64,000 bases of DNA. Origin: Methanoregula sp. Its GTDB lineage: Archaea > Halobacteriota > Methanomicrobia > Methanomicrobiales > Methanospirillaceae. Position 1 is the first letter of the stretch, and each line of letters starts with the position of its first letter. Made by a program: the position numbers and the translations under genes. The stretch is from positions 2,699 to 66,698 of the forward strand of contig JBAZFZ010000004.1 in assembly GCA_041653075.1 (NCBI GenBank), written 5' to 3'. The notes under the pieces are model-generated. The model was given only the letters and a program-made list of their open reading frames with translations, did not search any database and was not told the origin of the DNA. Below are positions 5,933 to 42,975 of this stretch, piece by piece.

Positions 5933-6030
5933 TATTATATGATTTTCACTTAAAGGATAAATGTATATTTAAAACATAATTGTTTATCTTGTTTCAAAGG
6001 AATCAAATCTTGTTTTGTAGTTAAAATTCC

Positions 6031-23452: not shown

Positions 23453-23457
23453 AGTAA

Positions 23458-24222: not shown

Positions 24223-24229
24223 TGTTAAA

Positions 24230-24865: not shown

Positions 24866-24867
24866 AC

Positions 24868-25338: not shown

Positions 25339-25360
25339 TTGGATCAACGTTTAAAGGGCC

Positions 25361-26674: not shown

Positions 26675-26959
26675 ATAATTTCCTCCGAAATTGGATTTGC
26701 CGCTATACAGTACCGTCTTTGAACAATGGTAATGACTAATAGGAACACTGGCTATGAATGAAAGTCGCTTTTGCACGTCCCCTAGATTGGGACATGGAAT
26801 AATTTTCAATTTCGACTTATAAGCGTTCCGATATTGTTCTGGAGAATTGTACTATACTGGCAGGAGAATACTTGGCGAATTCGAAGCAATGTTCAAATAT
26901 CCCATTGAATCCGACACCAGTTGTTCTACTTGATATTACATAATTTTATAGAAGTAGTA

Positions 26960-27491: not shown

Positions 27492-29594
27492 TTACTGCTC
27501 ACCTCCGAGCAGGAATGCATCGATCTGTGCAACGATCTGTGGGGTTGCAAAGTGCTGCATCCAGATTGCACCGCCGGGACAGAACCCTCCACAGGTACCG
27601 CAGCCTTTGCATTTTGCTTCGGTGACCTGCATGACCGTGCGGCCGTTCTTTTCCACAAGTGAGAGTGCACTGTACGGACAGAGGTTTACACACATACCAC
27701 AGCCTGCGCACTTTTCTTCAATACACTGGGCGAAGTACGGCTCAAGTTCGACTTCACCCATGTGGATTGGGATACTTGCAGCTGACGCTGCACCTTCTGC
27801 CTGTGCTACCGTGTCAGGGATATCTTTCGGGCCCTGGCAGACACCGGCAAGGAAGACACCGGCTGTGGTGGTTCCGCACGGGTTCAGCTTCGGGTGGGCT
27901 TCAAGGAGCCAGCCGTCCTGGGAGCAGGAAACACCGAAGAGCTTCCTTGTCCGGTTGGTATCTGCCTTGGGTTCGATTGCTGCAGCAAGAACAACAAGGT
28001 CGACTTCCATGTCAACCGGGCGGTCGAGCAGGGTGTCATCTGCGTACACGTGGAGGTTCTTGGTCTTGGGATCCTCAAGGATGTTTGCCACACGGCCGCG
28101 GATAAATTTCGCGCCTTCGTTCTGGATACGGTAGTAGAACTCTTCGTACATCTTACCGAACGACCGGATATCCATGTAGAAGATGTAGGGTACAGCACCC
28201 GGGATTTTCTCGGTGATCTGATGGGCATGTTTCAGTGAATACATGCAACAGAACCGCGAACAATACGGCTTACCTATACCGGTATTGTCTCGTGACCCTG
28301 CACAGAGCACGAAGGCAATACGCATTGGGGTCTGGCCATCGCTTGGGCGGACAAGGTGGCCACCGGTTGGGCCAGATGCGCAGATGAGCCGCTCGAATTC
28401 GAGGCTCGTAATGACGTTCTCGTACCTCTTGTATCCCCACTCCTTTTTATTCTCTATCGGGAAGATGTCGTACCCGGTTGCGAGGATGACCGTTCCAACT
28501 TTAACTTTAATGAACTCATCCTGCATGTCGAGGTCGATAGCCCGCTTCTCGGGACCGCACGCGGTCACGCACAGGCCGCACTTGACACAGGCATTGAAGT
28601 CTATGGTGTAAATAAGGGGAACGACCTGCGGATGGTTGATGTAGATCGCCTTCCTCGGCTTCATGCTAATCTCAAAGGCGTTAGGCTTGATAACCGGGCA
28701 GACCGCATCACAGTCACCGCAACCGTTACAACCTCCACCGATAATGCCCTTTGCGGCTGCTTCCTTCGGTGTCATTACACCTCGTGCTTTCTTGCGGATG
28801 GTGACCTCGAAGTTACCGATGTATCCTTCGACTTCGTGGACCTCGGACCAGGTCATAAGTTCAATGTTGGGGCTCCTGCCGACATCCACCATCTTTGGGG
28901 TTAAGATACACTGCGAGCAGTCGAGTGTCGGGAAAGTTTTATCGAGCTGGGACATACGCCCGCCGATGCTCATGTCGGATTCAATGAGGTAGGTCTTGAT
29001 CCCTGCTGCTGCAAGATCGAGTGCTGCCTGCATGCCGGCGACACCGGCTCCGACGACCATCGCTGTCTTTTCGACAGGCACTGACTTCGGGTAAAGATCC
29101 TGAAGGAGTGCAGCTTTTGCAACTGCGATCCGGACTGCATCCTTTGCTTTCTCGGTTGATCCTTCCCGGTCATGCATATGCACCCATGAGTTCTGGTCAC
29201 GGATGTTTGCCATCTCAAACCGGAACGGATTTAAGCCTGCATCCTTGGTTGCCGTTCTGAAGGTTGGCTCGTGGAGACGGGGCGTGCATGCAGCAACGAC
29301 GATACCTGTCAGGTTGTGCTCTTTTGCCGCTTTTTGAATAAGTGTCTGCCCTGGCATTGAGCACATGTACTTGTAGTTATCGACATAGGCCACATGGGGG
29401 ATGGTCTTGGCGTATTCCTGGACTGCGGGGATATCCATTGAGCCGGCGATGTTGGTACCGCAGTGGCAGATGAAAACACCGATACGGGGTTCCTGCTGGG
29501 TAGTTGCACCGGGAGCTGTTACTGGTGCCTCTTTATGGGAGTCCTGTTTCTTGGTCTCGGTCTTTTTAGTTGTTGTTTTCTTCTTTTCAACCAT
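27492..29594 (-). CDS. hdrA: Heterodisulfide reductase subunit A
   Basis: RIGVFICHCGTNI, AACTPRLHE, GAGVAG FAD motif, DKTFPTLDCSQC, CSRFCCMY, ferredoxin motifs. Confidence 0.98.
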   Translation of the reverse strand: MVEKKKTTTKKTETKKQDSHKEAPVTAPGATTQQEPRIGVFICHCGTNIAGSMDIPAVQEYAKTIPHVAYVDNYKYMCSMPGQTLIQKAAKEHNLTGIVVAACTPRLHEPTFRTATKDAGLNPFRFEMANIRDQNSWVHMHDREGSTEKAKDAVRIAVAKAALLQDLYPKSVPVEKTAMVVGAGVAGMQAALDLAAAGIKTYLIESDMSIGGRMSQLDKTFPTLDCSQCILTPKMVDVGRSPNIELMTWSEVHEVEGYIGNFEVTIRKKARGVMTPKEAAAKGIIGGGCNGCGDCDAVCPVIKPNAFEISMKPRKAIYINHPQVVPLIYTIDFNACVKCGLCVTACGPEKRAIDLDMQDEFIKVKVGTVILATGYDIFPIENKKEWGYKRYENVITSLEFERLICASGPTGGHLVRPSDGQTPMRIAFVLCAGSRDNTGIGKPYCSRFCCMYSLKHAHQITEKIPGAVPYIFYMDIRSFGKMYEEFYYRIQNEGAKFIRGRVANILEDPKTKNLHVYADDTLLDRPVDMEVDLVVLAAAIEPKADTNRTRKLFGVSCSQDGWLLEAHPKLNPCGTTTAGVFLAGVCQGPKDIPDTVAQAEGAASAASIPIHMGEVELEPYFAQCIEEKCAGCGMCVNLCPYSALSLVEKNGRTVMQVTEAKCKGCGTCGGFCPGGAIWMQHFATPQIVAQIDAFLLGGEQ

Positions 29595-29604
29595 GTTTCC
29601 CACC

Positions 29605-30528
29605 TCACAGCACCTTCTGCAGGAATGGTTCGCAGCTGATTGCATGGAGATCCAGTCCAAGTTCCTGCGGGCTCATGCCCTGTGCCAGTCCCAGCAGCTC
29701 ACAGTAGTGCAGAACAGGGATGTCATAGCTGACGCCAAATTTTTCCTTGATTTCTATCTGACCGCGGTCAAACTGGAGCTGACAGAACGGGCAGATATTA
29801 GCGAGCGCATCAACTTTTTCTTCAGTGATATTGATAAGTTTCTCGTTGGTGATATCCAGTGAGTGGACGAGATCATACCCCCGCACACCACCGCCAGCAC
29901 CACAGCATTGCATCTTATTACGGTATTCTACGGGAGTTGCACCAATGGCTGCAATCAACTCCTCAAGCCACACCGGGTGTTCTGTGTCTGACATGACACT
30001 CTTTTCGAATTCACGGTCTTTGCGGGGTTTTGTTAAGTGGCAACCATAGTGTACTGCAATCCGTGCACCCGTCAATGGTGTGACAATACTGTCCTTGATC
30101 TTGCTGACACCAACGTATTTCTCATTGTACATCAGTTCGGCGATGTGATAGACATTACAGGTGCCCTTGTATTCCATGTCAATTTCCTTGAGCACCTCGT
30201 TGACGCCGTCACGAAGATCCTTGTTGTGTTTAAGCTTGTGGTTGACTTCCCATATGGATTTGTAACAGCCGTTGCAGAGCAGTGCAATATCCATCTTCAT
30301 CTGTTCTGCAAGTACGAGATTGCGGGCAGCCATTGCATACCAGACATTGAGATCGATTGCTCCAAATGCCCCGGGAGCCGGGCAACAGCTGGCTCCCTTG
30401 AGGGGAACAAGATCAATCCCAAGTTTTTTACAAGTTTTGATTGCTGCCGCTTCACATCCCGGGTACCGGTTCGGTGCAATACAGCCCAGATAGAATGCGA
30501 ACGTGTGGTTTGCTTTGGATTCAGACAT
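29605..30528 (-). CDS. hdrB: Heterodisulfide reductase subunit B
   Basis: Two CCG domains (SCCPAPG...CNGC and QCCGAGGG...CPFC). Confidence 0.97.
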   Translation of the reverse strand: MSESKANHTFAFYLGCIAPNRYPGCEAAAIKTCKKLGIDLVPLKGASCCPAPGAFGAIDLNVWYAMAARNLVLAEQMKMDIALLCNGCYKSIWEVNHKLKHNKDLRDGVNEVLKEIDMEYKGTCNVYHIAELMYNEKYVGVSKIKDSIVTPLTGARIAVHYGCHLTKPRKDREFEKSVMSDTEHPVWLEELIAAIGATPVEYRNKMQCCGAGGGVRGYDLVHSLDITNEKLINITEEKVDALANICPFCQLQFDRGQIEIKEKFGVSYDIPVLHYCELLGLAQGMSPQELGLDLHAISCEPFLQKVL

Positions 30529-30534
30529 GGTTGC

Positions 30535-31116
30535 TTATCCCTCCCGTTCCTTGATGATCCTGTCAGCATTTTCCTTCATGTGATAGTGATCGAGGAGTTT
30601 TTGGATCCCGGGCATATATTCAGGATACATATGGGTAGTTGGCGGGTCACGTGTCAGGCCGAGTTTTTCACGGGCTGCACGGTTGACATCATTGTTTGGC
30701 ACACCATGACCGGTTTTATAGATTGCCTGAACGGTCTTGAGGAAGTTCACTGGCACGATATCATGCGTGAACGCTATATTTCTCATTGCCATGATAACAT
30801 CGGTCGGTGCAATATCCCTCGGGCATCGGTCTGTACAGCTGTAGCATGTCGTACAAAGCCACAGATCCGGATCGGTGAGTGCTTCGTTTTCAAGTCCAAG
30901 TACTGCTCTCCGCATGAACTTGCGGATACGGTATGAGCTTCTTGGTGCTGATGGACATGATCCAGTGCAGGTACCGCACTGGTAACACATATGAGCCATC
31001 GTACGTGCTGAGGCCTCGATCCTCTTGACAAAGTCAGGTGTCGAATCTTCACCGTAATACCGCTGATCCTGAAGTTTCTTATCCAGTGCTTCCGGGTAAC
31101 CTTTTGTTCTTGCCAT
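30535..31116 (-). CDS. hdrC: Heterodisulfide reductase subunit C
   Basis: CYQCGTCTGSCP and WLCTTCYSCTDRCPR. Confidence 0.97.
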   Translation of the reverse strand: MARTKGYPEALDKKLQDQRYYGEDSTPDFVKRIEASARTMAHMCYQCGTCTGSCPSAPRSSYRIRKFMRRAVLGLENEALTDPDLWLCTTCYSCTDRCPRDIAPTDVIMAMRNIAFTHDIVPVNFLKTVQAIYKTGHGVPNNDVNRAAREKLGLTRDPPTTHMYPEYMPGIQKLLDHYHMKENADRIIKEREG

Positions 31117-31125
31117 TCTGCTCCC

Positions 31126-32298
31126 TCACGCCTTCTCCATCACTTTTAGTCCGACCTGTCCGGCAATGCCTTCCTTGACCTTGGATGTCCTCTTTGTGCA
31201 GAGTTTCTCCTTGATCTTCTTGAACAGGTCTGTTTCCGTGCCTTTCATGCGGATACCGGTCCTCTGGAGAACAATGATGTCCTCACCCGGACATGCATTC
31301 ACACAGGCACCACACAGAATACAGAAATCCTTATTGACTGCAATTTTTGACTCGATATTGTGGCCCATGTCCGCAGCCGGCACTTCACTTGGAAGATAAA
31401 TTGCGTTTGCCGGGCAGATCTCGGCACAGGTTGAACAGCCACCTGGGCATTTCTCAGCGTGGAACTCAATTTCTCCTTCGAAGATCTTTTCGACGGTAAT
31501 CGCCTCGGCGGGACAGCTCTTGGCACACCATCTGCAGGTACAGCAGTTGTCCTTGACAATGCTGACTTTACCTTCAACTTTATCAGAGATGATCTCGCGT
31601 TCAACGGTGATCGCTTCAGTGGGACATGCCTCAACACAAATTTTGCAGGCATTGCACTTTGCTTCGTCCCAGATTACCTCCCCTTCAACTTTGCCGGATT
31701 CCGGAGAGAATTCCTTGTGCTGGACCTTGAGTGCCGGACAAAGAGCTCCGCACAGACCACAGACCGTACACTTTTCCTTGTCGACCGTGAATGTCGTCTT
31801 GGACTTGATAGCGGTGTGGCGTTCTCTGCCTCCTGCAACCGGGCCTTTGTAGGTTCCTTCGAAAGCCGGGACATTGCGATCGATTGCGTCACGGGGGCAC
31901 ACTTCCTCGCAGGTCGTGCACCTGACACATTTCTCATCGTCAATCTCTGCTTTCATATCGTACTGCGGGAATCCTTCTTTTTCAAGGATCGGGAGCCGCT
32001 CTTCTTGGTTGACCTTCAGCGTTAATGCATTGAAGGGGCACATTACAACGCATACACCACAATACGAGCACTTTGTCTCGTCAACTTCAATCGGGGCTGC
32101 GTAGTTAATAGCACCTCTGCGGGCTGCACCAACAAGTCCAAGGACGATTGCCTCCTCGGGACATGCTTCTGCGCAGATTCCGCAACCTGTACAGGCTTCT
32201 GAATTCAGAATCAGGTTGTTAACATCCTGAAGGAGACGCTGCTCCATCACAATGTTAATCCCATCCCTCTTTTTGGAAAACTTTGGAAACAATGCCAT
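31126..32298 (-). CDS. fwdF: Formylmethanofuran dehydrogenase polyferredoxin subunit F
   Basis: Eight CxxCxxCxxxCP-type motifs in 390 aa; adjacent to hdrC as in Methanomicrobiales Fmd-Hdr clusters. Confidence 0.85.
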   Translation of the reverse strand: MALFPKFSKKRDGINIVMEQRLLQDVNNLILNSEACTGCGICAEACPEEAIVLGLVGAARRGAINYAAPIEVDETKCSYCGVCVVMCPFNALTLKVNQEERLPILEKEGFPQYDMKAEIDDEKCVRCTTCEEVCPRDAIDRNVPAFEGTYKGPVAGGRERHTAIKSKTTFTVDKEKCTVCGLCGALCPALKVQHKEFSPESGKVEGEVIWDEAKCNACKICVEACPTEAITVEREIISDKVEGKVSIVKDNCCTCRWCAKSCPAEAITVEKIFEGEIEFHAEKCPGGCSTCAEICPANAIYLPSEVPAADMGHNIESKIAVNKDFCILCGACVNACPGEDIIVLQRTGIRMKGTETDLFKKIKEKLCTKRTSKVKEGIAGQVGLKVMEKA

Positions 32299-32588: not shown

Positions 32589-32890
32589 GATTTCATGCAC
32601 CAGCTATGATCGATTGCAAAATCGATTATCAAAAGAGTGGTGAAAGAATCTAGATAAATGTTCTGAAATCTACTGCGTTATACCGGATTGATATAATATT
32701 TTTTTTAATCATGGTCCATATGCAATTTAGATGAGTTAACTAACACCGGTAAACCTGCAACTAATTTGATTCAAAAGTACTTATGCGCTCTTTGATTCCT
32801 CATTTCCGGGTAATCTGAAACCTTACCAAATCAAATGAGAATCTTTATTCCCTAGTAATCAAGGTACTTTTGTATACCGGAGGTTATGTT

Positions 32891-33775
32891 ATGGAACTTA
32901 ACGGTGTTTCGATTGATAATACCTATGCAGAGGCATTCCCTACCTGGGTCTGCCGTGTGATAATAACTGCAGTGACCAAGAACTGGGCACTTAATGCTGC
33001 AACAGAGGCAACCGGGTTTGCAACTTCAGCAATTGGATGCCCCTGCGAAGCAGGCATTGAGAATATTCTTTCCGGAAGTGAAACACCTGATGGACGCCCG
33101 GGCGTTTCAATCCTTATCTGTGCCGGTAAGAAGGCGCTCAAGGAGCAGGTTATGGAACGGCTTGCAGAGTGCGTCCTGACTTCACCGACCACGGCAGTCT
33201 TTAATGGTCTCCCGGCAGCAGAGGAAAAGGTCCCGGTGAAACTTCACTTCTTTGGCGATGGCTATGAGTACCAGAAGGAAGTCGGCGGAAGGAAGTGCTG
33301 GGCAATCCCCATCATGAACGGGGAATATATCGGTGAAGAGGAATTTGGCATTGTCAAGGGAGTTGCCGGCGGGAACTTCTTTATCATGGGTGAGAACCAG
33401 ATGGCAGCCCTTACTGCAGCAGAGGCAGCATCCGATGCAATTGCCGATGTGAAAGGTGTCATCACGAGCTTCCCCGGTGGTATCGTTGCCAGCGGTTCGA
33501 AGGTCGGCAGCCTGAAGTACAAATTCATGAAGGCCTCGACAAACGAGAAGTACTGCCCGACACTCCGGGAAAAAGTTGCTGACAGCAAGGTGCCGGCCGG
33601 TGTCAAAGCTGTGTACGAGATCGTTATCGATGGTATCGATGAAAAGAGCGTTGCTGCTGCAATGGGTGCAGGTATCAAAGCAGCAGTCATGGTTCCGGGT
33701 GTGAAGTTTATCTCTGCCGGAAACTTTGGTGGCAACCTTGGGCCGTTCAAGCTTGAACTTGAAAAGGTCCTTTAA
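32891..33775 (+). CDS. ftr: Formylmethanofuran:tetrahydromethanopterin formyltransferase
   Basis: IDNTYAEAF, TPDGRPG, GVAGGNF, SGSKVGS, AGNFGGNLGP. Confidence 0.98.
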   Translation: MELNGVSIDNTYAEAFPTWVCRVIITAVTKNWALNAATEATGFATSAIGCPCEAGIENILSGSETPDGRPGVSILICAGKKALKEQVMERLAECVLTSPTTAVFNGLPAAEEKVPVKLHFFGDGYEYQKEVGGRKCWAIPIMNGEYIGEEEFGIVKGVAGGNFFIMGENQMAALTAAEAASDAIADVKGVITSFPGGIVASGSKVGSLKYKFMKASTNEKYCPTLREKVADSKVPAGVKAVYEIVIDGIDEKSVAAAMGAGIKAAVMVPGVKFISAGNFGGNLGPFKLELEKVL

Positions 33776-33866
33776 ATCTCTTTTTGTGTTATTTTTCTTC
33801 AGTTTACCCAGTCTATATATAGGGTTAATGCCGATTATTTTGTTAACGAAAATTTCGGCGATAACC

Positions 33867-34823
33867 ATGATCACCCTTACTCCCGAGGAAGTGAAGGCCC
33901 GGTTCGGGCAACTTTTCTCAAAGAAGTTCCTCGTTATGGTAGATGAACAGGCAGGATTTGCAGAGATCATCGAGCAATGCCAGGCACGCGGTACCATTGA
34001 ATGGGATGCGATGAACCGGCGCCGGGCCGGGGGAGCTGTGGCTTCCTGTGATGTGGAGGGAAGCACGATGACTCTCCGGGCACATCTTGGCCACCATCCG
34101 GTCAACTTCGGGCCAGCAGCCGGTTCGATTGGTGGCCAGGCACTGGAGGCCGTTGAAGTGGACGGCGACACTGTTGTGACCACCTGGTCCGGTATCGCCG
34201 GGGCCGGTGTTGGCATTGCAGCATGTCTCCCCCAGGCACCCGGCGTCATCCGGGCTGAGTACCCTTCAGAAGATGACCTGAAAATCGGAGGAGCCCGTAT
34301 GAATCACGTGCGGATTGTCTCGCCGCTCTACGAGAAGGTATGTTTCGGGATCGATGACACCGATACAAAAGCCGAAGGTGCGACCTGGGTCATGGCCCTC
34401 AAGTGCGCCGGTGCCTGCACCGTTAAAGGTGTGGAATTTCTTAATATGCGCCTTGTCCAGCTCAACCCGAAAGTGCCGAACAAGACCACCAACTGTGTCG
34501 GATCGGCCCTCAATTTTGCAGCACGGCCGGAGAGTATTCCCGCACTCAAGGAGTTCGTCCGTTCATTTGTTGAGAAGAACTCGGTCTCAAAGGACACGGG
34601 GATCGCGTTCTACCGTGGCCTCTCGCTTAAGAAGGATTCCCCCCTGCTCAAAGGGATCAAGACCGAGATCCTCTCCCTTGAACCGGTCGAGTTGGAAGCA
34701 AAGCGCCTGGGTATCGAGTACCTTGACGGGAACGGGAGAAAGGGCCGGATTGGGGCGCTTGGTGCCGTACTCTGGGCAAACCGCGGGGTTGAGGCAGCAG
34801 GACTCTATGGCGAACATCTCTGA
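33867..34823 (+). CDS. Methanogenesis marker protein 11-like, paralogue 1 (C-terminal TiaS-like kinase domain)
   Basis: GIDDTD..EGATW, LVQLNPKVPNKTTNC, GRIGALGA; similar to the next gene along its whole length. Confidence 0.8.
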   Translation: MITLTPEEVKARFGQLFSKKFLVMVDEQAGFAEIIEQCQARGTIEWDAMNRRRAGGAVASCDVEGSTMTLRAHLGHHPVNFGPAAGSIGGQALEAVEVDGDTVVTTWSGIAGAGVGIAACLPQAPGVIRAEYPSEDDLKIGGARMNHVRIVSPLYEKVCFGIDDTDTKAEGATWVMALKCAGACTVKGVEFLNMRLVQLNPKVPNKTTNCVGSALNFAARPESIPALKEFVRSFVEKNSVSKDTGIAFYRGLSLKKDSPLLKGIKTEILSLEPVELEAKRLGIEYLDGNGRKGRIGALGAVLWANRGVEAAGLYGEHL

Positions 34824-35703
34824 CCCGTACAGCATCCGCTACCATAGGATCGTGGCGTTAGCGGATGGATCCGGCAGCCGGGTCGAACTTGTGGAATTCT
34901 TCGACTGTGTCGGCGGGGCAATGTGGACACAGTACCACTATGCAGAGAGCCCGCTTGTTGAGAGCGTCCGCTGTGTCGGCGCAACGAGCCGATTCCTCCT
35001 CAAACCGGGGTCAGTCAACCTCGCACTCGAAGGATCCCGTTTTCCGGCAGGGATTTCCGGCATTACTGTTTCGGGCGACGAAATTGCCGTTACCTATATA
35101 GGCATGGGTGGTGGGGGAGTCGGGGCGACGACCTGTCGGGCGGCTGCAAAAGGCGTGCTGCGCGAACACTGCGATCCCTCCGGGGGGGGAAAGGTAGCCT
35201 CGGCAACGCTCTGGCTGCCACGCATGCAGCGGGTGCTTATCGGTGTTGACGATACCGATACGCCCGAAGCCGGGGCAACCTGGACCCTTGTCCACAATAT
35301 TGCACAGGCCGTCGAAGATGAAGATGCAATATATCTATCCCATACGATAGTCCAGCTCTACCCGGTTCCGTACCGGACCAAGAACTGTGTCGGGCTTGTC
35401 GTTGAGTTTGCCACAACCAGCCCGGACACGCTTATCGAACGGTTCCGAAGCCTTCTTGAAAAATACACCCTGTCGGAAAAGACCGGCATGGCGGCGTACA
35501 CCGGGTTTGAACCTTCAGAACACCTGGAAGCGTACGGCTGGAATGTCAAACGGGGCGAGGTCAGCCCGGGCCTTATCGCACAGCTTGACGACAATGATCT
35601 CCGGATCTGCATGAACGGCCGTGGGATTGTCGGTGCTGTAGCGGCAATTCCCTTTTATACGAGATATAATGAGGCGCTGGAATTATGCGATGGCAAGACA
35701 TAA
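34807..35703 (+). CDS. Methanogenesis marker protein 11, paralogue 2 (C-terminal TiaS-like kinase domain)
   Basis: ATG at 34807 overlaps the upstream gene by 17 nt; GMGGGGVGA, IGVDDTDT..GATW, IVQLYPVPYRTKNC, GRGIVGAVAA. Confidence 0.85.
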   Translation: MANISDPYSIRYHRIVALADGSGSRVELVEFFDCVGGAMWTQYHYAESPLVESVRCVGATSRFLLKPGSVNLALEGSRFPAGISGITVSGDEIAVTYIGMGGGGVGATTCRAAAKGVLREHCDPSGGGKVASATLWLPRMQRVLIGVDDTDTPEAGATWTLVHNIAQAVEDEDAIYLSHTIVQLYPVPYRTKNCVGLVVEFATTSPDTLIERFRSLLEKYTLSEKTGMAAYTGFEPSEHLEAYGWNVKRGEVSPGLIAQLDDNDLRICMNGRGIVGAVAAIPFYTRYNEALELCDGKT

Positions 35704-36653
35704 AAGCGCGGCTTCTTGAAGCAGGATCGGCACGGCTCATCGGTGAACCGGCTAACCGTTACATCGCAACATCGACTGCGGGCCCGGGAGCCGGGGGTCT
35801 GGGTTCGATCTTCTTTGCGATGGGAAGCCACCGGGTGAAATTTGCACTTAACCCTGAAAGCAGCATCGAGATTGTCCACCGGGGCGGGGGCGTGGCCGAC
35901 CTCTATTATAATGACCAGCAGGTCTCCGGGAGGCTCCTTGAACCCGGACTTCACTGTCCGGACCAGGCGTTTATTACCGTCACCGAAAATTGCATCTTCC
36001 ACTGCACCTATTGCCCGGTGCCAACCCATCCCGGGAAACGCAAATCCGTGCGGGAGATCATGGACCGTGTCGAATCCGTCCGCCACCGGATCACTGCAAT
36101 TTCCCTGACAAGTGGGGTGATGGGGAGCATTGAAGAAGAGGAGGCTTATGTCTGCGAGGTTATCCGCCACTTAACGTTTTTTGATCTCCCCATTGGTGTT
36201 TCGATCTACCCGACCGATCAGACGCCGGACCGGCTCAAGGAGCTCGGGGTTACCGAAGTAAAGTTCAACATCGAAGCTGCGACCCCCGGACTTTTCGCAA
36301 AAGTCTGCCCGGGGCTCGATTACGACCGTCTCATGAGTGTGCTTGACCGCTCCGTAGAACTCTTCGGGCGGGGCAGGGTGTACTCCAATGTCATCATCGG
36401 CCTTGGGGAGACCGATGAGGAAATGAGGGCCTGCATCTCCCGGCTTACCTCTCACGGGGTGATCCCGGTGCTTCGTCCGCTCAATCCGGTGGCAGGGTTT
36501 GCCGGGAGCAGCCGGCCTTCGGCCGAACGGCTCAAAAAGATCTTTTCCCTGCACAGTATCTCACTCAAAAGTGCCGGCCTTGACACGACAAAGGCCCTGA
36601 CGATGTGTACACCCTGTGCCGGTTGTGATCTTGTCCCGGGGAGGGATGAATGA
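35685..36653 (+). CDS. Radical SAM protein (biotin-synthase-related, MSMEG_0568-like) with C-terminal CxxCxxC
   Basis: STAGPGAG, HCP, CIFHCTYC, FNIE, IIGLGET, C-terminal CTPCAGC. Confidence 0.85.
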   Translation: MRWQDIKARLLEAGSARLIGEPANRYIATSTAGPGAGGLGSIFFAMGSHRVKFALNPESSIEIVHRGGGVADLYYNDQQVSGRLLEPGLHCPDQAFITVTENCIFHCTYCPVPTHPGKRKSVREIMDRVESVRHRITAISLTSGVMGSIEEEEAYVCEVIRHLTFFDLPIGVSIYPTDQTPDRLKELGVTEVKFNIEAATPGLFAKVCPGLDYDRLMSVLDRSVELFGRGRVYSNVIIGLGETDEEMRACISRLTSHGVIPVLRPLNPVAGFAGSSRPSAERLKKIFSLHSISLKSAGLDTTKALTMCTPCAGCDLVPGRDE

Positions 36654-37921
36654 ACGGTGCGGCAGCGCTTGCGGAAGCACTCCACAGCTGTACTGACTAT
36701 CAGTATACCGTACCCGGTTTTCCCATCACGGAAGTCGGCACCCTTACGGGAGCAACCCTTGCGGTCAATGAAAAAACTGCATTAGAGTATGCTCTCGGGG
36801 ATTCCCTTGCCGGGAAACGGGCTGCTGCGATTATCAAGAATGTCGGGGTGAATGCATGTGCCGACCCGCTGGTCAATGCAACTGCGCAGGGGCTTATTGG
36901 CGGAGTCCTTCTTGTTGTCGGCGACGATCCTGAAGCGGTCGGGTCCCAGACTGCACAGGACTCCCGGTATTACGGGGAACTGGCAGAGATCCCGGTTCTC
37001 GAACCCGATGAATCGACCCTTTTTGCCGCAGTTGAATTGGCGCTTGAGGCATCAGAAGAGTCCTCCCGTGTCGCTATGCTCCGGGTGACCCCCCGGCTGC
37101 TGGATGCAGAAATGGAGTGGAGACCGGTAAAAAGGCAGGACCGGAAAGGACATCTTTCCCCGCGTGACCTTACCATGAACGGCCGGGTGACTGCCTCACA
37201 GGAACTGTACCGCACCCTGTTTGCCTGGTCGGAGAGTTCTCTGCTGAATACCTGGAATGCAGAACCCCTCGGCGCCGGACCGGCCCCGGGGAAATCCCGG
37301 GTGGTGACCGTTCATCCCGTCCCGGGTCGCGTTTCGGGTTACCTCCGCATAAACGAATGCGGTCGGTCGTTTGTCCGGGACCACCGGGGGGTTATGCCGC
37401 CGGAAATCGGGGGCGCACCCAAAACGCTGAAAAAAAGGGGTTTCTACCGGACATTCTGCAGGGAATGTCCATATAAACTCCTTCTTGACCTTATGAAATC
37501 CCGTGATATGCGGCCGATCTGCGATGCCGGCTGTTCGCTCTATGCAATGAATCCGCAGTACAGTATGGGTCTTGCAAGCTACGGCATGGGTTCAAGCATC
37601 GCAGTTGCCGCCCGGAGCACGCACGTAGCTCTGCTCGGCGATTATGCCCTGCTCCATTCAGGGATCAACGCCCTGATCGATGTGTATGAGAAGAGATTTC
37701 CGCTCCTGTGCGTCGTGATGAGAAATCACTGCGCAGCGATGACCGGAGGCCAGCCTGCAAGCGATCCCCTCCCCTACATTACCTGGGCAGACCCGGTTGT
37801 CTGCGGTGCGGAAGATGAACATCTTCTCGGCAACGTTATCCGGCAGACGGATACACCGGTGACGGTGGTCGTGGAAGCACAGTGTCCCGAGGGAGTACAT
37901 CATGAAACCGTGGAATGTTGA
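36650..37921 (+). CDS. ThDP-dependent enzyme, truncated IorA (indolepyruvate oxidoreductase alpha)-like
   Basis: PGFPITE, NEKTALE, KNVGVN..ADP, GDDP..SQTAQDSR, FCRECPY, DAGC, GDYALLHSG...N..AMTGGQ; no C-terminal ferredoxin domain. Confidence 0.85.
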   Translation: MNGAAALAEALHSCTDYQYTVPGFPITEVGTLTGATLAVNEKTALEYALGDSLAGKRAAAIIKNVGVNACADPLVNATAQGLIGGVLLVVGDDPEAVGSQTAQDSRYYGELAEIPVLEPDESTLFAAVELALEASEESSRVAMLRVTPRLLDAEMEWRPVKRQDRKGHLSPRDLTMNGRVTASQELYRTLFAWSESSLLNTWNAEPLGAGPAPGKSRVVTVHPVPGRVSGYLRINECGRSFVRDHRGVMPPEIGGAPKTLKKRGFYRTFCRECPYKLLLDLMKSRDMRPICDAGCSLYAMNPQYSMGLASYGMGSSIAVAARSTHVALLGDYALLHSGINALIDVYEKRFPLLCVVMRNHCAAMTGGQPASDPLPYITWADPVVCGAEDEHLLGNVIRQTDTPVTVVVEAQCPEGVHHETVEC

Positions 37922-39029
37922 GATCTGTGACGTAACGTTACGGGACGGAGAACAGACACCGGGAGTGTCGTTTTCCTGCGAGGAGAAAGTGGATATCGCC
38001 CGGACCCTTGATGCCATAGGTATCGAGGTTATCGAGGCCGGGTTTCCCGCAGTATCCGATAATGAGAAAAAGTGCGTGAAGACTATCGCAAACCTCGGCC
38101 TTGACTCCAGAATTTGCGGTTTTGCCCGGGCACGGGAACCGGATATCCTGGCCGCGATCGACTGCGATGTGGACATGGTTTCGATCTTTATCCCGACATC
38201 TGATCTTCACGTTCGCCTCAAGTTCAAAAAATCCCGTGAACAGGTCCTTGAAGATGCCCTTGGCATGATCGATTTTGCCCGGGATCACGGTGTAAAGGTG
38301 CGGTTTGCCGCAGAAGATGCCTCACGGACCGATGTAGCCTTCCTCAAGGACGTTTACAATGGTGCTGCAGAGCACGGGGCGCTTCTTGTCAGCTTTGCTG
38401 ATACGGTCGGCTGCCTTGTCCCCAACGAGATGCGCACGATTATGACCGACCTTGTGTCTTCTGTTAAACTGCCGCTGTGTGCCCACTGCCACAACGATAT
38501 GGGATGTGCGGTCGCAAACACGATCACGGCCGCAGATGCGGGAGCCTTCCAGCTCCACACCACGGTAAACGGCATCGGGGAGCGCTCCGGGAATGCATCC
38601 CTTGATGAAGTGCTTGTCATCCTCCGGCAGAAAGGCGGGATCGACCGGTACGACCTCTCGTACCTGACAACCCTATCCCGCAAGGTAGAAAAATACTCGG
38701 GAATTACGCTTCCGAGGAACAAGCCGGTAACCGGTGAACTTGCGTTCTCGCATGAGAGCGGCATCCACATCGCAGCAATCCTTGAGGATCCCAAGAGCTA
38801 CGAGTACTTCCCCCCGGATCTTGTCGGGGGAGAGCGGCACTTTATTCTGGGGAAGCACACCGGGCGAAAAGCACTCGAACATGTTGTCTCGTCCCTCGGT
38901 TACGATCTCTCCGAAGTCCAGATCTGCCGGGTGCTCGATCTTGTCAAGGTGCACTCCGAACAGAAGTGCAGCATAACCCCCAAGATCCTCCAGAAGCTGA
39001 TCCGTCGGGCACAAAAGGAGTCTGTCTGA
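37902..39029 (+). CDS. aksA: Homocitrate synthase family enzyme for 2-oxoacid elongation (AksA)
   Basis: DVTLRDGEQTPG, HCHND, NGIGERSGN, HESGIH; 375 aa, without the C-terminal regulatory domain of LeuA/CimA. Confidence 0.85.
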   Translation: MKPWNVEICDVTLRDGEQTPGVSFSCEEKVDIARTLDAIGIEVIEAGFPAVSDNEKKCVKTIANLGLDSRICGFARAREPDILAAIDCDVDMVSIFIPTSDLHVRLKFKKSREQVLEDALGMIDFARDHGVKVRFAAEDASRTDVAFLKDVYNGAAEHGALLVSFADTVGCLVPNEMRTIMTDLVSSVKLPLCAHCHNDMGCAVANTITAADAGAFQLHTTVNGIGERSGNASLDEVLVILRQKGGIDRYDLSYLTTLSRKVEKYSGITLPRNKPVTGELAFSHESGIHIAAILEDPKSYEYFPPDLVGGERHFILGKHTGRKALEHVVSSLGYDLSEVQICRVLDLVKVHSEQKCSITPKILQKLIRRAQKESV

Positions 39030-40240
39030 TGAGCACGCTCTCCGAAAGGATTCTTGGCGCACATGCCGGGGAATATGTGGACCGGAACGTTGACCGGGCC
39101 TATGTCCACGATGGGACCGGAGTCATTGCTCTTGAATCCTGGAAACAGATGGGAGGCGACCGGCTCGGGAAAGATACCCGGTATTATGTCCTCTTCGACC
39201 ACATTGTCCCGGCAAACAATGGTACGACCGCAACCCTCCAGCAAGAGCTTCGGGATTATGCAAAGAAATCCGGAATGCAGTTCTCCGATATCGGCGGCGG
39301 CATCTGTCACCAGCTCATGAGCGAGGGCATCGTCCGGCCCGGGGAGGTTGTTGTCGGTGCAGATTCGCACAGCGTCACAGGTGGGGCATTCGGGGCATTT
39401 GCCACGGGAGTCGGAGCAACCGATATGGCCGCAATCTGGCTGACCGGTGAGACCTGGTTCCGTGTCCCTGAGTCCGTGGGGATCCATCTTGCCGGCAGAC
39501 TATCAGGAGCTGCCGAAGCAAAGGATCTTGCCCTTATGTATGTCGGGAAACTGGGGACTGACGGGGCGACTTACCAGGCCCTCGAATTTATCGGAGAGGG
39601 TATCCGGAGCCTCTCCATGGATGAGCGCCTGGTGCTTTCCAACCTTTCTGTGGAAGCCGGGGCAAAGGCCGGGCTTTTCTATGCTGACGATGTGACCGTT
39701 CGTTACCTTAAGGAACAGGGTTGCGAAGCTGCCACGCAGGATATCGAACCCTGTGCCTATGCTCGGGAGCTCGATCTCGATCTCGCGGATGTCGTCCCTC
39801 TTGTGGCGGTCCCCCACCGGGTGGACACGGTAAAACCCGCAGACGCCTTGGCCGGGCTCGCTCTTGACCAGGTCTTTGTCGGGACCTGCACGAACGGCCG
39901 GTATTCCGATCTCGCCCGGTTCGCACGGCTGGTCAAAGGCAAAAAGGTCGCGGTACGGACCATTGTTATCCCTGCTTCGGCAGCCATCCTTGAGAAAGCG
40001 ATCATGACCGGTGTGCTCGCTGATATCGTGAAAGCCGGGTGCACCATAGGTACTCCCGGGTGTGGCCCCTGCATCGGGTACCACATGGGAGTTCTCGGGG
40101 AGGGCGAGGTCTGCCTCTCCACTGCGAACCGCAATTTCAAAAACCGGATGGGTGTCGGCGGCGAGATCTACCTTGGCTCGATTGCCACCGCCGCTGCAAG
40201 CGCCTTAAAAGGTGAGATAACCTCACCGGAGGCTGCCTGA
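39029..40240 (+). CDS. aksD: Homoaconitase large subunit
   Basis: HDGTG, DSHS, GTCTNGR, PGCGPCIG, NRNF; TGATG coupling to aksA. Confidence 0.85.
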   Translation: MSTLSERILGAHAGEYVDRNVDRAYVHDGTGVIALESWKQMGGDRLGKDTRYYVLFDHIVPANNGTTATLQQELRDYAKKSGMQFSDIGGGICHQLMSEGIVRPGEVVVGADSHSVTGGAFGAFATGVGATDMAAIWLTGETWFRVPESVGIHLAGRLSGAAEAKDLALMYVGKLGTDGATYQALEFIGEGIRSLSMDERLVLSNLSVEAGAKAGLFYADDVTVRYLKEQGCEAATQDIEPCAYARELDLDLADVVPLVAVPHRVDTVKPADALAGLALDQVFVGTCTNGRYSDLARFARLVKGKKVAVRTIVIPASAAILEKAIMTGVLADIVKAGCTIGTPGCGPCIGYHMGVLGEGEVCLSTANRNFKNRMGVGGEIYLGSIATAAASALKGEITSPEAA

Positions 40241-40710
40241 TGCAGGGACATGGAAAGGCCGTCTGCCTGCCTGCCGATATAGATACCGATATTGTCATTG
40301 CGGGCCGGTACCTGCGGACCAGGGACCGGAGCATCTGGGGTGAACATGTGTTTGAGGACCTCGATCCGTCCCTTGCCCCCCGGTTGAAAGGTGCCGTGAT
40401 TGTTGCCGGGAAAAACTTCGGGTGCGGTTCATCGCGGGAACAGGCAGCGATTGCGATCCATGAAGCAGGCGTTGTCGCTGTTATCGCCCCCTCGTTTGCG
40501 AGGATCTTCTTTAGGAACGCGATCAACATCGGCCTCCCGCTCATCGAGTCGGATATGACCTGCACGGATGGAGGTGAAATCGGGTTCAGCCTGTCAGAAG
40601 GCTGGGTTCGGTGTGACGGAAAGCAGCACGCGATTCGCCCCCTATCCCCCCGCATGCAGGAGATCCTCAATGCAGGCGGGCTTGTGGAATACTGGAGGTC
40701 CCACCGGTGA
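40240..40710 (+). CDS. aksE: Homoaconitase small subunit
   Basis: IDTDIVI, NFGCGSSRE; YLRT loop characteristic of methanogen homoaconitase small subunit rather than LeuD. Confidence 0.88.
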   Translation: MQGHGKAVCLPADIDTDIVIAGRYLRTRDRSIWGEHVFEDLDPSLAPRLKGAVIVAGKNFGCGSSREQAAIAIHEAGVVAVIAPSFARIFFRNAINIGLPLIESDMTCTDGGEIGFSLSEGWVRCDGKQHAIRPLSPRMQEILNAGGLVEYWRSHR

Positions 40711-41507
40711 TTTTCCCCGAGCACTGCAAGTTCGTGGGGCTTGCGACGACAAAACCCTGTGGCGACCGGGTCTATACCCTGAGCAGGTACCTACTCCGGG
40801 AGGTAAGCGAAGGATACGAGCTCATTGAGGTTACGCTGGATCCGACAGAAAAGACGGTCATGCGGGATATCGCCGCCTCCCGGATCCTTGCGACCCCGGG
40901 CGAGATTTACCGGTATCCGGAGAGAGTCCGGCTCAACGACCGGGCCCGGCTGGTTCGGCTCGCCCTTGAATCCGGGTACCGCTGCACGGTCTTTACCGGC
41001 CTTGAGGAAAACATGACTTTTGTGCTTGACCCCGATCTCTCCGGGTTTTTGACGGTGCATGTCTACGATGTTATCCCGCCCCGGCCAACCCTTTCGGCAA
41101 GTATCCGTGAGATAGAGGAGATCGGGCTCTTTGGTGATCTCTCCGTGGTCTTCGAGCATCATGTCCGGGACATTTCGAAGATTCCCGCAGATATCTATCC
41201 CTGCCGGGCCGCCGGCTATCCACGGACGCTGGATGCAGACTCCTTAAAAAGCGGCGACCTGGTGGCAGGATGCCTCACGGCAACGCAGCTCTGTACTGAG
41301 GTCTACGGGAAGGAGTATACGCTTGAGAATATCTGTCCGCTGGAACAGGTCAAAGAGGAGCCGTTTATCGCCCGGTGCTGCCGTTTAGAACGTGAAGGCG
41401 TGGGGATCTGGCACGGGAAATACGGTGCCATCGTCCACTGGGGTGCAAGCCCGGCAAAGATCTTCCGGTCCGTGCAGGAGCTTGTCGGCCAGTGGAGGGA
41501 AAAATGA
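40707..41507 (+). CDS. Cys-rich hypothetical protein inside the aks operon
   Basis: GTGA and ATGA overlaps on the two sides; motifs DVIPP, YPC, GC, ICP, RCC, VHWG. Confidence 0.85.
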   Translation: MIFPEHCKFVGLATTKPCGDRVYTLSRYLLREVSEGYELIEVTLDPTEKTVMRDIAASRILATPGEIYRYPERVRLNDRARLVRLALESGYRCTVFTGLEENMTFVLDPDLSGFLTVHVYDVIPPRPTLSASIREIEEIGLFGDLSVVFEHHVRDISKIPADIYPCRAAGYPRTLDADSLKSGDLVAGCLTATQLCTEVYGKEYTLENICPLEQVKEEPFIARCCRLEREGVGIWHGKYGAIVHWGASPAKIFRSVQELVGQWREK

Positions 41508-42472
41508 CAAAGATTGCCGTTGTCGAAGGTGACGGGATCGGCCACGAAGTGATCCCGGTCGCACAAAACGCCCTTGCCCTGCTCCACCCGGAATACGAGT
41601 TTTTCCCGGTGGATGTAGGATACGGACGGTGGGAAACGACCGGCTGCCCCTGTTCTGACGATGAGATTGCGGCGCTCAAAACTGCGGACGCTGTTCTGTT
41701 CGGGGCGATAACAACTCTTCCGATGAAGGATTACCAGAGCGTGGTCCTGCGTATACGAAAAGCTCTCGATCTGTATGCGAACCTGCGGCCGGTGAAAGGC
41801 GACAATTTTGACATTATGATTGTCCGGGAGAATACCGAGGGCCTGTATTCGGGAATTGAAGAGAGCACGGAGGACCGGGCGACTACGCTCCGGCTTGTGA
41901 CCCGCACCGGTTCGGAACGGATAGTACGGTCTGCACTCCATCTTGCGAAATCACGTTCGGGTAAACTCACCATCGGCCATAAGGCAAATGTACTCAAGTC
42001 CGATGTCTTTTTCCGGGATATCTGCATTGCAGAGGTAAAAGATACGGGAATCTCGTGCAACGACAAGTTCATCGATGCCCTGGCCCTTGATGTCCTCCAG
42101 CACCCGGCTGCATACGATGTGATCGTGACAACCAACATCTTTGGCGATATCCTCTCGGATGTCGCATCGTACCTTGTCGGGGGCCTGGGGCTTGTCCCGA
42201 GCGCCAATGTCGGCGACCGGTATGCCCTCTTTGAACCGGTTCACGGCAGCGCCCCGGATATTGCCGGGAAAAATATCGCAAATCCCATAGCGGCCCTCCG
42301 AAGTGCATCGATGCTCCTTTCCCATCTTGGGGACCGTAAAGGAGCCGGTCGGATCGAATCTGCCATAGCTGCAGTGCTTGCATCCGGTATCCGGACCCGG
42401 GACCTTGGCGGATCGGTCGGGACCGTGGAATTTGGCGGGGCAGTCATCCGGGCACTTGGCTTGACTTCCTGA
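41504..42472 (+). CDS. aksF: Homoisocitrate dehydrogenase (AksF)
   Basis: GDGIG.EV, GAITT...YQSVVLRIRK (HICDH-type), RENTEGLYSG, HKANVL, NIFGDILSD, EPVHGSAPDIAG. Confidence 0.85.
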   Translation: MTKIAVVEGDGIGHEVIPVAQNALALLHPEYEFFPVDVGYGRWETTGCPCSDDEIAALKTADAVLFGAITTLPMKDYQSVVLRIRKALDLYANLRPVKGDNFDIMIVRENTEGLYSGIEESTEDRATTLRLVTRTGSERIVRSALHLAKSRSGKLTIGHKANVLKSDVFFRDICIAEVKDTGISCNDKFIDALALDVLQHPAAYDVIVTTNIFGDILSDVASYLVGGLGLVPSANVGDRYALFEPVHGSAPDIAGKNIANPIAALRSASMLLSHLGDRKGAGRIESAIAAVLASGIRTRDLGGSVGTVEFGGAVIRALGLTS

Positions 42473-42975
42473 CCGTTAATCTGAATCCACCCCGCGATCT
42501 TTTTTAATATCCTTTTCCACCTGCCCGCTGGCTGTCCTGACACCGTATCACGGTCACGTATGTTCAGACAAAGTGCAGCCGTCATGGAGCTATAAAGCTG
42601 TTCTGGTGTTCATCCCCGCGTGTGTATATCATCGCTTCAACGACCGCGAACCGGATTTTCATCTCTGCATTATTGTATGCCACCATACGGGTTATGGGGT
42701 GAAAACAGGCAGAATTCCCGTACGGAATTGTGGGGTGTGTTTCGGGAAGATAATCAAAAAAAGGCTCGCCGGATTCCGAAGATTGTGATCATTATGAGGA
42801 AGGCACGGGACAGATACAAAGGATGGAATGATGAGGAATAAAATTGATGGAAACTGCTTGACCGGTAAGAAAAGATCCTTGTGTTCGCACCGGTATGATA
42901 GCACCCGGTTGGGAATGTTACTTCATTTGGAAAACAGGGAACGGTGGGATATGATTGCCTGGAATAAAAAAGGGA

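Follow-up and report, generated by a model that had tools for sequence, protein, structure and literature searches.

A conserved operon of Methanomicrobiales that probably joins the aksADEF genes to candidate enzymes for the late steps of coenzyme B biosynthesis

Coenzyme B (CoB) is the electron donor of methyl-coenzyme M reductase (MCR) and one half of the energy-conserving heterodisulfide, and it is needed by every methanogen and every anaerobic methane or alkane oxidiser. MCR and heterodisulfide reductase (Hdr) are the two enzymes that use it. Its late chemistry, consisting of decarboxylation, thiol formation, threonine ligation and phosphorylation, has been known from labelling for decades. 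The literature that we searched assigns no gene to these late steps, holding only work on the aks genes and general statements, and it does not mention marker 11 or DUF7714, two protein families that are central to this report. A 2025 paper describes the CoB pathway as still unknown and suggests that it may need MMP16 or L-ASST (PMC12068725). For the other thiol cofactor, coenzyme M (CoM), the final step in Xanthobacter autotrophicus Py2 is the reduction of sulfoethanethioaldehyde by XcbA, a [2Fe-2S] protein (PMC9457059). Here we describe a nine-gene operon (g1 to g9) of Methanoregula sp. that probably joins aksADEF to candidate late-step enzymes. It lies in a 64,000-nucleotide stretch (the window) of contig JBAZFZ010000004.1 (positions 2,699 to 66,698), designated C4, of assembly GCA_041653075.1 (2.18 Mb in 88 contigs, 75.6% complete).

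Nine plus-strand open reading frames (ORFs) fill the operon, as seen from the ORF list and the start and stop codons (coordinates in Table 1); start codons were chosen as those giving full-length family matches. In order, they encode a marker 11 paralogue (g1), methanogenesis marker protein 11 (g2), a radical S-adenosylmethionine (SAM) protein (g3), an IorA-like thiamine diphosphate (ThDP) protein (g4), AksA-, AksD- and AksE-type proteins (g5 to g7), a DUF7714 protein (g8) and an AksF-type protein (g9). Successive genes overlap by 17, 19, 4, 20, 1, 1, 4 and 4 nt, and g4 to g9 each have a GGAGG-like ribosome-binding motif 5-10 nt ahead of the start codon. DUF7714 is set between aksE and aksF, with 4-nt overlaps on both sides. 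An earlier sequence-only reading of this DNA had described nine overlapping genes on one strand, in this order, directly after ftr and near hdr and mcr. The overlaps match exactly at the level of ORFs and codons, the Pfam and NCBIfam assignments agree with the order, and the coordinates bear out the placement.

Gene order is strongly conserved within the Methanomicrobiales. All eight genes from g2 to g9 are present, with their order kept, in 64 of the 65 loci that span this interval (Methanoregula, Methanolinea, Methanoculleus and Methanospirillum), so the arrangement is not due to chance. The first gene, g1, is present in 44 of 72 related loci and absent from the other 28, nearly all of which have a short ftr-g2 gap that marks it as genuinely missing; the conserved unit therefore consists of eight genes plus g1 as an accessory paralogue. 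In most of these loci hdrACB, the polyferredoxin gene and ftr lie upstream, and in 80 related loci hdr and mcr accompany the operon. The search for related loci, made with the marker 11 alignment, returned only Methanomicrobiales, and the nearest marker 11 loci are those of Methanoregula metagenome-assembled genomes, at no more than 78% identity. The aks genes and the five genes of other families thus form one conserved, translationally coupled unit, as the sequence-only reading had proposed.

The best described counterparts of g5, g6, g7 and g9 are AksA, AksD-AksE (HacAB) and AksF of Methanocaldococcus jannaschii, the enzymes that elongate 2-oxoglutarate to 2-oxosuberate, with which they share domain families and subunit structure. 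Here, by contrast, the four aks genes stand in one operon with five others, DUF7714 is inserted between aksE and aksF, and scores fall below Methanococcus-based equivalog cut-offs. The g5 protein matches PF00682 (HMGL-like, E = 1.6e-82) and PF22617 (HCS_D2), and a Pfam scan detected no LeuA regulatory domain in it. Both aconitase-type subunits exceed the broader family cut-offs (g6: NF001614, 489 bits; TIGR01343 hacA_fam, 464 bits against 385.7; g7: TIGR02087, 160 bits against 109) and fall under the methanogen-specific ones (HacA_Meth, 409 bits against 550; HacB2_Meth, 160 bits against 230). For g9, which matches PF00180 at E = 8.6e-88, the top equivalog-level matches are AksF2_Meth (322 bits, cut-off 540) and AksF_Meth (304 bits), both under their cut-offs. 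At the subfamily level, g5 and g9 have strong NCBIfam matches just under the cut-offs. It seems that the HacA_Meth, HacB_Meth and AksF_Meth models were derived from distant class I methanogens. By domain content the four genes are AksA/D/E/F-type, and their products would carry out three rounds of elongation to 2-oxosuberate.

A separate leuC-leuD-leuB cluster is present on contig C21 of the same genome, and a true IorA (840 bits) is encoded on another contig. Because these sit elsewhere, the operon copies of the aks and IorA-like genes are best read as dedicated paralogues, the aks genes being distinct from the leucine-pathway set. The small subunits differ in one loop, which reads YLRT in g7 versus FLTL in the genome's own leuD. 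We take YLRT to be a homoaconitase signature, for which the literature searched gave no confirmation. Four other lineages have the same loop in the aksE gene that adjoins DUF7714; in Methanosuratincola it is YLRS. To follow the families further afield we used a 151-genome sample of the phylum, with families labelled by f-numbers and with M. jannaschii, a named control, as the class I methanogen covered. In mcr-less genomes and in f16 and f17 genomes of this set the small-subunit loops are varied.

The g8 protein matches PF24830 (DUF7714) at 282 bits. To the XcbA_fam model NF052538 its match is 51.1 bits with E = 1.1e-13, under the cut-off of 150, and covers positions 39-291 of the 293-position profile. 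On this profile evidence g8 is a distant homologue of XcbA and not a member of the family. A tblastn search of 72,556 plasmids with g8 gave four matches only, at 25-26% identity over 91% of the query, on plasmids of Nocardioides JS614, Mycolicibacterium chubuense NBB4 and Methylocystis iwaonis (two plasmids). In the two records inspected, the match is a 'hypothetical protein' encoded between genes for phosphosulfolactate synthase and for adenylosuccinate-lyase-family, pyridoxal-phosphate-dependent and argininosuccinate-lyase proteins, a gene set that by its content is the bacterial xcb cluster for CoM. Thirty-four archaeal DUF7714 sequences and two bacterial xcb-cluster proteins share five invariant cysteines (C166, C189, C210, C224 and C225), a set that could hold an Fe-S cluster or make up a redox site, and PPxP and VxWG motifs are common to g8 and the bacterial proteins. 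What is new here is that DUF7714, judged from these alignments, is a full-length homologue of bacterial XcbA.

Both proteins are encoded in clusters for thiol-cofactor biosynthesis. XcbA is bacterial and sits beside comA/xcbB, whereas g8 is archaeal and lies between aksE and aksF; the XcbA substrate is a C2 sulfonate thioaldehyde, whereas the predicted substrate of g8 is a C7 carboxylate thioaldehyde. By analogy, the CoB counterpart of the XcbA step would be the conversion of 7-thioxoheptanoate to 7-mercaptoheptanoate, and g8 is a candidate Fe-S thioaldehyde reductase forming 7-mercaptoheptanoate. A search of solved structures with the g8 sequence gave no match. Fold searches with its structure model (pLDDT 88.6) gave no meaningful match either (best Foldseek E against the PDB, 0.024; atlas TM < 0.4), and the best hits of a wide VIA search (Z 7.6) were to generic alpha/beta domains covering residues 114-266. 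A match of the model to HypD (Z 5.8) was at background level and was not used. The top 120 proteins listed in a DUF7714 profile search were all 'hypothetical proteins' of Methanoregula type. The operon encodes no COG1900 aldehyde sulfurtransferase (MMP16/ComF, L-ASST), and g8 has no sequence relationship to these proteins. Starting from aldehydes, they have been proposed to make the thiol groups of CoM and homocysteine, and perhaps that of CoB (PMC12068725); they may be the sulfur source, or provide an alternative route in lineages without DUF7714.

The g4 protein carries the PYR and PP domains of OFOR/IorA-type enzymes (IOR_alpha N-terminal match; PF02775, E = 8e-8) and shares their GDY...N ThDP motif, with G330-D331...N359 invariant in the alignment, which identifies a ThDP-dependent 2-oxoacid enzyme domain. 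Its match to TIGR03336 (IorA) amounts to 134 bits in two stretches against a cut-off of 650.9, well outside the IorA family. IorA has a ferredoxin domain with two [4Fe-4S] clusters and an IorB partner, whereas g4 has neither: no Fer4 match was found in it and no IorB-like gene adjoins it. The Methanomicrobiales g4 proteins also lack a middle domain of about 90 aa. Four cysteines (C270, C273, C295 and C412) are invariant in g4 homologues across orders and form a CxxC...GC...C pattern, which we take to resemble the proximal [4Fe-4S] site of 2-oxoacid:ferredoxin oxidoreductases. A search of solved structures with the g4 sequence gave no match. The role proposed for g4 parallels that of ComDE, the sulfopyruvate decarboxylase of CoM synthesis, in that decarboxylation would yield an aldehyde for thiolation; the searches done found no homology between ComDE and g4. 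Its domains make g4 a candidate 2-oxosuberate decarboxylase.

With 334.2 bits to TIGR03280 over model positions 2-291, g2 exceeds the cut-off of 255.8 and belongs to marker 11. The g1 protein, at 181.5 bits, does not, and it falls in a separate 'g1-type' clade of the family tree; on score and tree position it is a paralogue and not a marker 11 member. The tree splits the family into marker 11 proper, the g1-type clade and a third, longer paralogue. The whole family is centred on methanogens and small, with 94 clusters matching at E < 1e-30 in a set of 1.8 billion representatives. Both g1 (E = 1.4e-12) and g2 (about 1e-12) match PF22641, TiaS_TCKD. A search of solved structures with the g2 sequence gave no match. 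With its AlphaFold model (pLDDT 94.9), however, the top nine Foldseek matches in the PDB are all TiaS (best E = 7e-8; about 166 columns, 3.5 A root-mean-square deviation). The matching part is the C-terminal portion of about 160 residues; the N-terminal 140 or so residues gave no clear structural match in Foldseek.

TiaS, the tRNA(Ile2) 2-agmatinylcytidine synthetase (PDB 3AMT, 3AMU, 4RVZ and 5XOB), thus shares its TCKD kinase core with g1 and g2. When the two are aligned with the genome's own TiaS, which is encoded on another contig, GxDDTD, the threonine at the position of TiaS Thr18 and RGxIGA are all kept, and GxDDTD...GATW is invariant in the marker 11 alignment. In TiaS this threonine is autophosphorylated. 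The differences are considerable. TiaS has OB and zinc-ribbon RNA-binding domains, whereas g1 and g2 lack these and end after the FLD-like part; only about 166 columns of g2 align to the 417-aa TiaS, and g2 carries an unrelated N-terminal domain of about 140 aa that TiaS does not have. Against the TiaS equivalog NF040849, g1 scores 33.7 bits (cut-off 600) and g2 has no match. Presumably the substrate of marker 11 is a small molecule, unlike that of TiaS. According to Terasaka et al. in 2011, TiaS reportedly phosphorylates a carbonyl oxygen, and an amine then displaces the phosphate. TiaS-like chemistry on a carboxylate would give an amide, and a threonine kinase would be the other step that CoB needs. 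That marker 11 is an ATP-dependent activating enzyme is well founded; its exact step is uncertain. By analogy, g2 is a candidate activating enzyme for the ligation of 7-mercaptoheptanoate to threonine and/or for the phosphorylation.

Two further observations concern this family. The third paralogue, with ORFs of 370-415 aa that score 100-140 bits against TIGR03280, is widespread in the phylum sample (for example G064:C1:1380394-1381215 and G004:C24:5593-6438), also in families without mcrA or Mmp4 (f9), and was not found in the present, incomplete genome. In GCA_038831125.1 a g1-type gene adjoins mcrBDCG, an A2-type double ABC ATPase gene, Mmp8 (DUF2099) and a flavodoxin-like gene.

The g3 protein is a radical SAM family member (PF04055, E = 1.2e-15; 58.5 bits against a cut-off of 29.5) whose CX3CX2C motif (C103/C107/C110) is invariant in the alignment. 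It has a further C-terminal CxxCxxC motif (C307/C310/C313). Among eight radical SAM genes adjacent to marker 11, the first cysteine of this motif is invariant and the full motif is present in seven (absent at locus L105). The best NCBIfam matches are variant_rSAM (NF045502, 74 bits against 125), LipS2 (66.9 against 270) and MSMEG_0568 (TIGR04043, 66 against 303.7), all under their cut-offs; lipA (25.9 against 310) and bioB (30.6 against 225) score lower. Lipoyl synthase and biotin synthase are the nearest solved sequences, but similarity to LipA, BioB and LipS2 is weak and g3 has no lipoyl or biotin gene context. 'Variant' radical SAM proteins have a longer motif spacing than the CX3CX2C of g3. 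MSMEG_0568/'variant rSAM' genes directly adjoin marker 11 in Archaeoglobaceae, f16, f17 and one Methanocellaceae genus, and the TIGR04043-type genes beside marker 11 in other archaea share VCPG and C-terminal GCxxCxxC motifs with g3. By its scores and motifs g3 is a divergent member of this group. In the mcrA-less Archaeoglobaceae-type genomes, marker 11, an adjoining TIGR04043-type radical SAM gene and Mmp4 occur in each genome. Separately, on a Methylocystis iwaonis plasmid (NZ_CP143315.1, 188767-203531) the xcb cluster for CoM adjoins a complete Nit1C-type cluster that holds a radical SAM gene of the MSMEG_0568 family, the family that accompanies archaeal marker 11; this may be coincidence.

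The links among these genes extend beyond the Methanomicrobiales. DUF7714 was found in every genome of ten families of the phylum sample, all of them mcr-bearing (three incomplete genomes of these families have no detected mcrA), and was not found in the other sixteen. All aks-DUF7714 loci examined, which come from four orders, have it next to aksE/aksF; outside the Methanomicrobiales these are loci of Methanosarcinaceae-, Methanothrix- and Methanocellaceae-type genomes. In Methanocellaceae, a marker 11-ThDP pair and aksA/D/E/F with DUF7714 form one cluster of 8-9 kb. The best g4 homologue outside the order directly adjoins marker 11 in f7, f24 and f14, whereas in f10 DUF7714 follows it at a distance of about 6 kb. 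Only a few orders have the IorA-like gene, and elsewhere an ALS-type ThDP enzyme replaces it. Two unrelated ThDP types occupy the same slot, which favours a ThDP-dependent 2-oxoacid step in the pathway.

Neighbourhoods outside the phylum are similar. In Candidatus Methanosuratincola, aksD-aksE, an ALS-type ThDP enzyme, marker 11 and an FAD oxidoreductase are encoded together, and marker 11 is paired with aksA in Methanofastidiosum. An aksA-marker 11-radical SAM arrangement is seen at one marker 11 representative, and a tight marker 11-radical SAM-DUF7714 operon stands beside mtmB. On contigs labelled Undinarchaeales, genes for an Mmp4-like protein, an ALS-type ThDP enzyme, a g3-type radical SAM protein, AksA and AksF lie divergent from marker 11. 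Linkage to aks and ThDP genes thus recurs where no mcr gene is near. The contexts of four further marker 11 representatives (P0018, P0005, P0062 and P0028) were short or uninformative. It should be noted that the Undinarchaeales (DPANN) label of these contigs (GCA_024711945.1 and GCA_030750015.1) rests on the marker 11 protein, and that a B12-radical SAM gene lies nearby. An unnamed 289-aa gene of the same cluster was considered as a possible DUF7714; hhalign was negative, and the gene is Mmp4/MtxX-like.

Mmp4/MtxX (TIGR03270) looks like a further member of the pathway, judging from its co-occurrence with marker 11. In the present genome it lies outside the operon, on contig C13, and follows an AIR-synthase-like (Mmp2-type) gene. 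Within the patchy families f8, f15, f16 and f17, Mmp4 occurs in exactly those genomes that carry a marker 11 family gene (f8: G047, G057, G065, G073, G097 and G136; f15: G126; f16: G011, G033 and G044; f17: G059), and M. jannaschii has both marker 11 and Mmp4. It directly adjoins a g1-type gene in thirteen Methanocellaceae genomes and in the ANME-1-like G126, adjoins marker 11 in G059, and also lies within the Undinarchaeales-labelled cluster. A 2026 crystal structure of MtxX revealed a phosphotransacylase/PlsX fold with a predicted ligand that is hydrophobic and acidic; the paper, which has no mention of marker 11, gives the function as unknown (PMC12978539). An attractive hypothesis is that marker 11 as kinase and Mmp4 as acyltransferase would form the amide via an acyl phosphate.

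Gene order, domain homologies and conserved neighbourhoods are direct observations, from which we infer each substrate and step that follows. In our reading, AksA, AksD/E and AksF would build 2-oxosuberate and the same operon would encode most of the enzymes leading from there to CoB. The ThDP enzyme g4 would decarboxylate 2-oxosuberate to 7-oxoheptanoate. Sulfur would be added to this aldehyde, and the resulting thioaldehyde would be reduced to 7-mercaptoheptanoate by g8. Marker 11 (g2) would then use ATP in a TiaS-like manner to activate the carboxylate, threonine attacking and displacing the phosphate, and g1 and/or g2 would phosphorylate the threonine oxygen. The radical SAM protein g3 would act with marker 11 in a step that may be the supply of sulfur or some other activation. 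Among these assignments, those of g8 as thiol-forming reductase and of g4 as the ThDP step have the firmest basis. Taken as a whole, we consider it probable that this is a CoB operon joining AksADEF to candidate late-step enzymes.

The sequence-only reading had named matching chemistries for the five genes, and the domain matches do include a ThDP enzyme, radical SAM/Fe-S chemistry and two TiaS-type ATP-dependent phosphotransfer domains. Its statement that the late steps lack firm gene assignments is in line with the literature searched, including the 2025 paper that calls the pathway unknown (PMC12068725). Its suggestion that the operon may encode the complete pathway was not supported: g1 is absent from 28 of 72 loci, Mmp4/MtxX lies on another contig, and the IorA-like gene is replaced elsewhere. 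The operon is probably neither the whole CoB pathway nor universal, some steps being carried out by other enzymes in other lineages.

Several points weigh against the CoB reading. White's labelling route reportedly runs from aldehyde to thiol and needs no radical SAM enzyme. For g4, oxidative rather than simple decarboxylation is possible given its cysteines. Searches for DUF7714 found none in M. jannaschii and none in the mcr-bearing families f12, f15, f16 and f20. Marker 11 proper was not found in 13 of 14 ANME-1-like genomes, in any of five Methanoliparia-like genomes or in the Syntrophoarchaeum-like families, all of which are groups that carry mcr. Conversely, marker 11 exceeds its cut-off in four mcrA-less Archaeoglobaceae-type (f8) genomes and one f17 genome, and one family member is labelled Undinarchaeales. 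The family therefore does not conform to the 'methanogens only' definition of TIGR03280; the JGI name is 'imperfect marker'. For the CoB thiol of Methanosarcina, genetic work published in 2025 implicates COG1900 proteins (MMP16 and L-ASST; PMC12068725). The sequence-only reading had proposed profiling the genes against mcrA and checking their synteny, and the outcome is mixed: order is kept within the Methanomicrobiales and links to aks recur at a distance, but DUF7714 is patchy and marker 11 occurs in mcrA-less genomes.

One alternative keeps the CoB pathway and assigns its steps differently, which we regard as unlikely. Here g4 would act oxidatively, through an Fe-S centre, to give an acyl or thioacyl product, g3 would deliver sulfur, DUF7714 would reduce a thio-intermediate, and marker 11 with Mmp4/MtxX, not g1, would form the amide via an acyl phosphate. 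The four invariant cysteines of g4 (CxxC...GC...C) fit such a scheme, as do the relation of g3 to LipA and BioB as nearest solved sequences and the C-terminal CxxCxxC in seven of eight marker 11-linked radical SAM genes. However, an ALS-type ThDP enzyme, of a normally non-redox family, stands in the same slot in two lineages, and published labelling is said to support a free 7-oxoheptanoate intermediate. Mmp4/MtxX tracks the marker 11 family genome by genome, often next to a g1-type or marker 11 gene, and its phosphotransacylase/PlsX fold with a hydrophobic, acidic predicted ligand (PMC12978539) would suit an acyl phosphate route, but it lies outside this operon.

Still less likely is that the module is not specific to CoB and makes another product from a 2-oxoacid, such as a pimelate or biotin precursor or another omega-thio-acyl cofactor. 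Chemically, 7-oxoheptanoate is pimelate semialdehyde, and g3 resembles biotin and lipoyl synthases. The marker 11-radical SAM pair of mcrA-less Archaeoglobaceae-type genomes and the aksA-aksF-radical SAM-ThDP-Mmp4 cluster with marker 11 on the Undinarchaeales-labelled contigs would also be in keeping with a broader role. However, DUF7714 is restricted to mcr-bearing families in the 151-genome sample, its homology to XcbA suggests thiol formation for a CoM-like cofactor, the marker 11 family is small and methanogen-centred, and the operon accompanies hdr and mcr in 80 related loci.

Finally, we think it improbable that only aksADEF serve CoB and that the other five are marker genes sharing a gene island, for example for MCR maturation or modification: in f16 genomes mcr does follow marker 11 at a distance of about 3 kb, a g1-type gene stands beside mcrBDCG, the A2 ATPase gene and Mmp8, and published abstracts describe radical SAM enzymes that modify McrA, but the aks/ThDP linkage recurs without mcr nearby, DUF7714 lies between aksE and aksF and overlaps each by 4 nt, its XcbA homology is to a small-molecule reductase (PMC9457059), and marker 11 occurs in mcrA-less genomes.

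Table 1. Positions of the operon genes, flanking features and Mmp4/MtxX genes. Positions are those of the window unless a contig or locus is named.
Feature	Position	Strand	Length (aa)	Family match or remark
Nine-gene operon	33867-42472	+		g1 to g9
g1, marker 11 paralogue	33867-34823	+	318	PF22641 TiaS_TCKD
g2, methanogenesis marker protein 11	34807-35703	+	298	TIGR03280
g3, radical SAM	35685-36653	+	322	PF04055
g4, IorA-like ThDP protein	36650-37921	+	423	IOR_alpha N-terminal part and TPP_enzyme_C (PF02775)
g5, AksA-type synthase	37902-39029	+	375	HMGL (PF00682) and HCS_D2 (PF22617)
g6, AksD-type large subunit	39029-40240	+	403	aconitase large subunit
g7, AksE-type small subunit	40240-40710	+	156	aconitase small subunit
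g8, DUF7714	40707-41507	+	266	PF24830
g9, AksF-type dehydrogenase	41504-42472	+	322	Iso_dh (PF00180)
Candidate operon promoter, TATA-like TATATATA	33814-33821	+		about 45 nt 5' of g1
Candidate archaeal terminator, T6 run	42500-42505	+		28 nt 3' of the aksF stop
ftr	32870-33775	+		directly 5' of the nine-gene operon
Polyferredoxin gene, hdrC, hdrB, hdrA	27492-32298	-		upstream of the operon
mcrBDCGA	21743-26809	-		upstream of the operon
Mmp4/MtxX, this genome	C13:24226-24801			TIGR03270
Mmp4/MtxX, elsewhere	L008:3547-4269			
Mmp4/MtxX, elsewhere	L012:10839-11699			
Mmp4/MtxX, elsewhere	L121:6099-6968			

The surroundings of the operon are given in Table 1. A T-rich stretch lies right after the ftr stop codon, ahead of the TATA-like TATATATA that may serve as the operon promoter, and an archaeal phosphoenolpyruvate carboxylase gene on the minus strand lies downstream of the operon. 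Another contig of the genome carries a further full-length mcrA (C1:120733-122409, 942 bits), presumably part of an isoenzyme operon. Elsewhere in the window, GC content falls to 0.37 at positions 4001-6000, with flanks at about 0.55. On the minus strand, a 640-aa ORF (51472-53394) has an N-carbamoylputrescine amidase-like N-terminal half and an agmatine deiminase-like C-terminal half, and from these matches it looks like a fused two-step agmatine-to-putrescine enzyme.

The reading of the locus as a CoB operon, together with the links across lineages, yields a short list of candidates, each with a predicted reaction. A wider proposition is that there is an unrecognised late-CoB set, made up of a ThDP decarboxylase (with IorA-like and ALS-like forms interchangeable), an XcbA-like Fe-S thioaldehyde reductase, marker 11 as a TiaS-derived small-molecule kinase/ligase with its radical SAM partner, and the phosphotransacylase-like Mmp4/MtxX, and that its core module also occurs outside MCR-bearing archaea. 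As a joint claim we regard this as speculative and doubtful. If it were true, the core module of aks, ThDP, radical SAM, marker 11 and Mmp4 genes would be present in mcr-less Archaeoglobaceae and Undinarchaeales-labelled genomes, and CoB-like thiol cofactors would be used beyond methane or alkane metabolism, or would be relics of that metabolism.

If confirmed, the candidates of the operon would complete the map of methanogenic cofactor biosynthesis, offer new inhibitor targets for methane mitigation, and explain what DUF7714 and several 'methanogenesis marker' proteins do. A TiaS-type kinase would have passed between tRNA modification and cofactor synthesis, in one direction or the other. Bacteria and archaea would share a thiol-forming reductase for two methane-related thiol cofactors.

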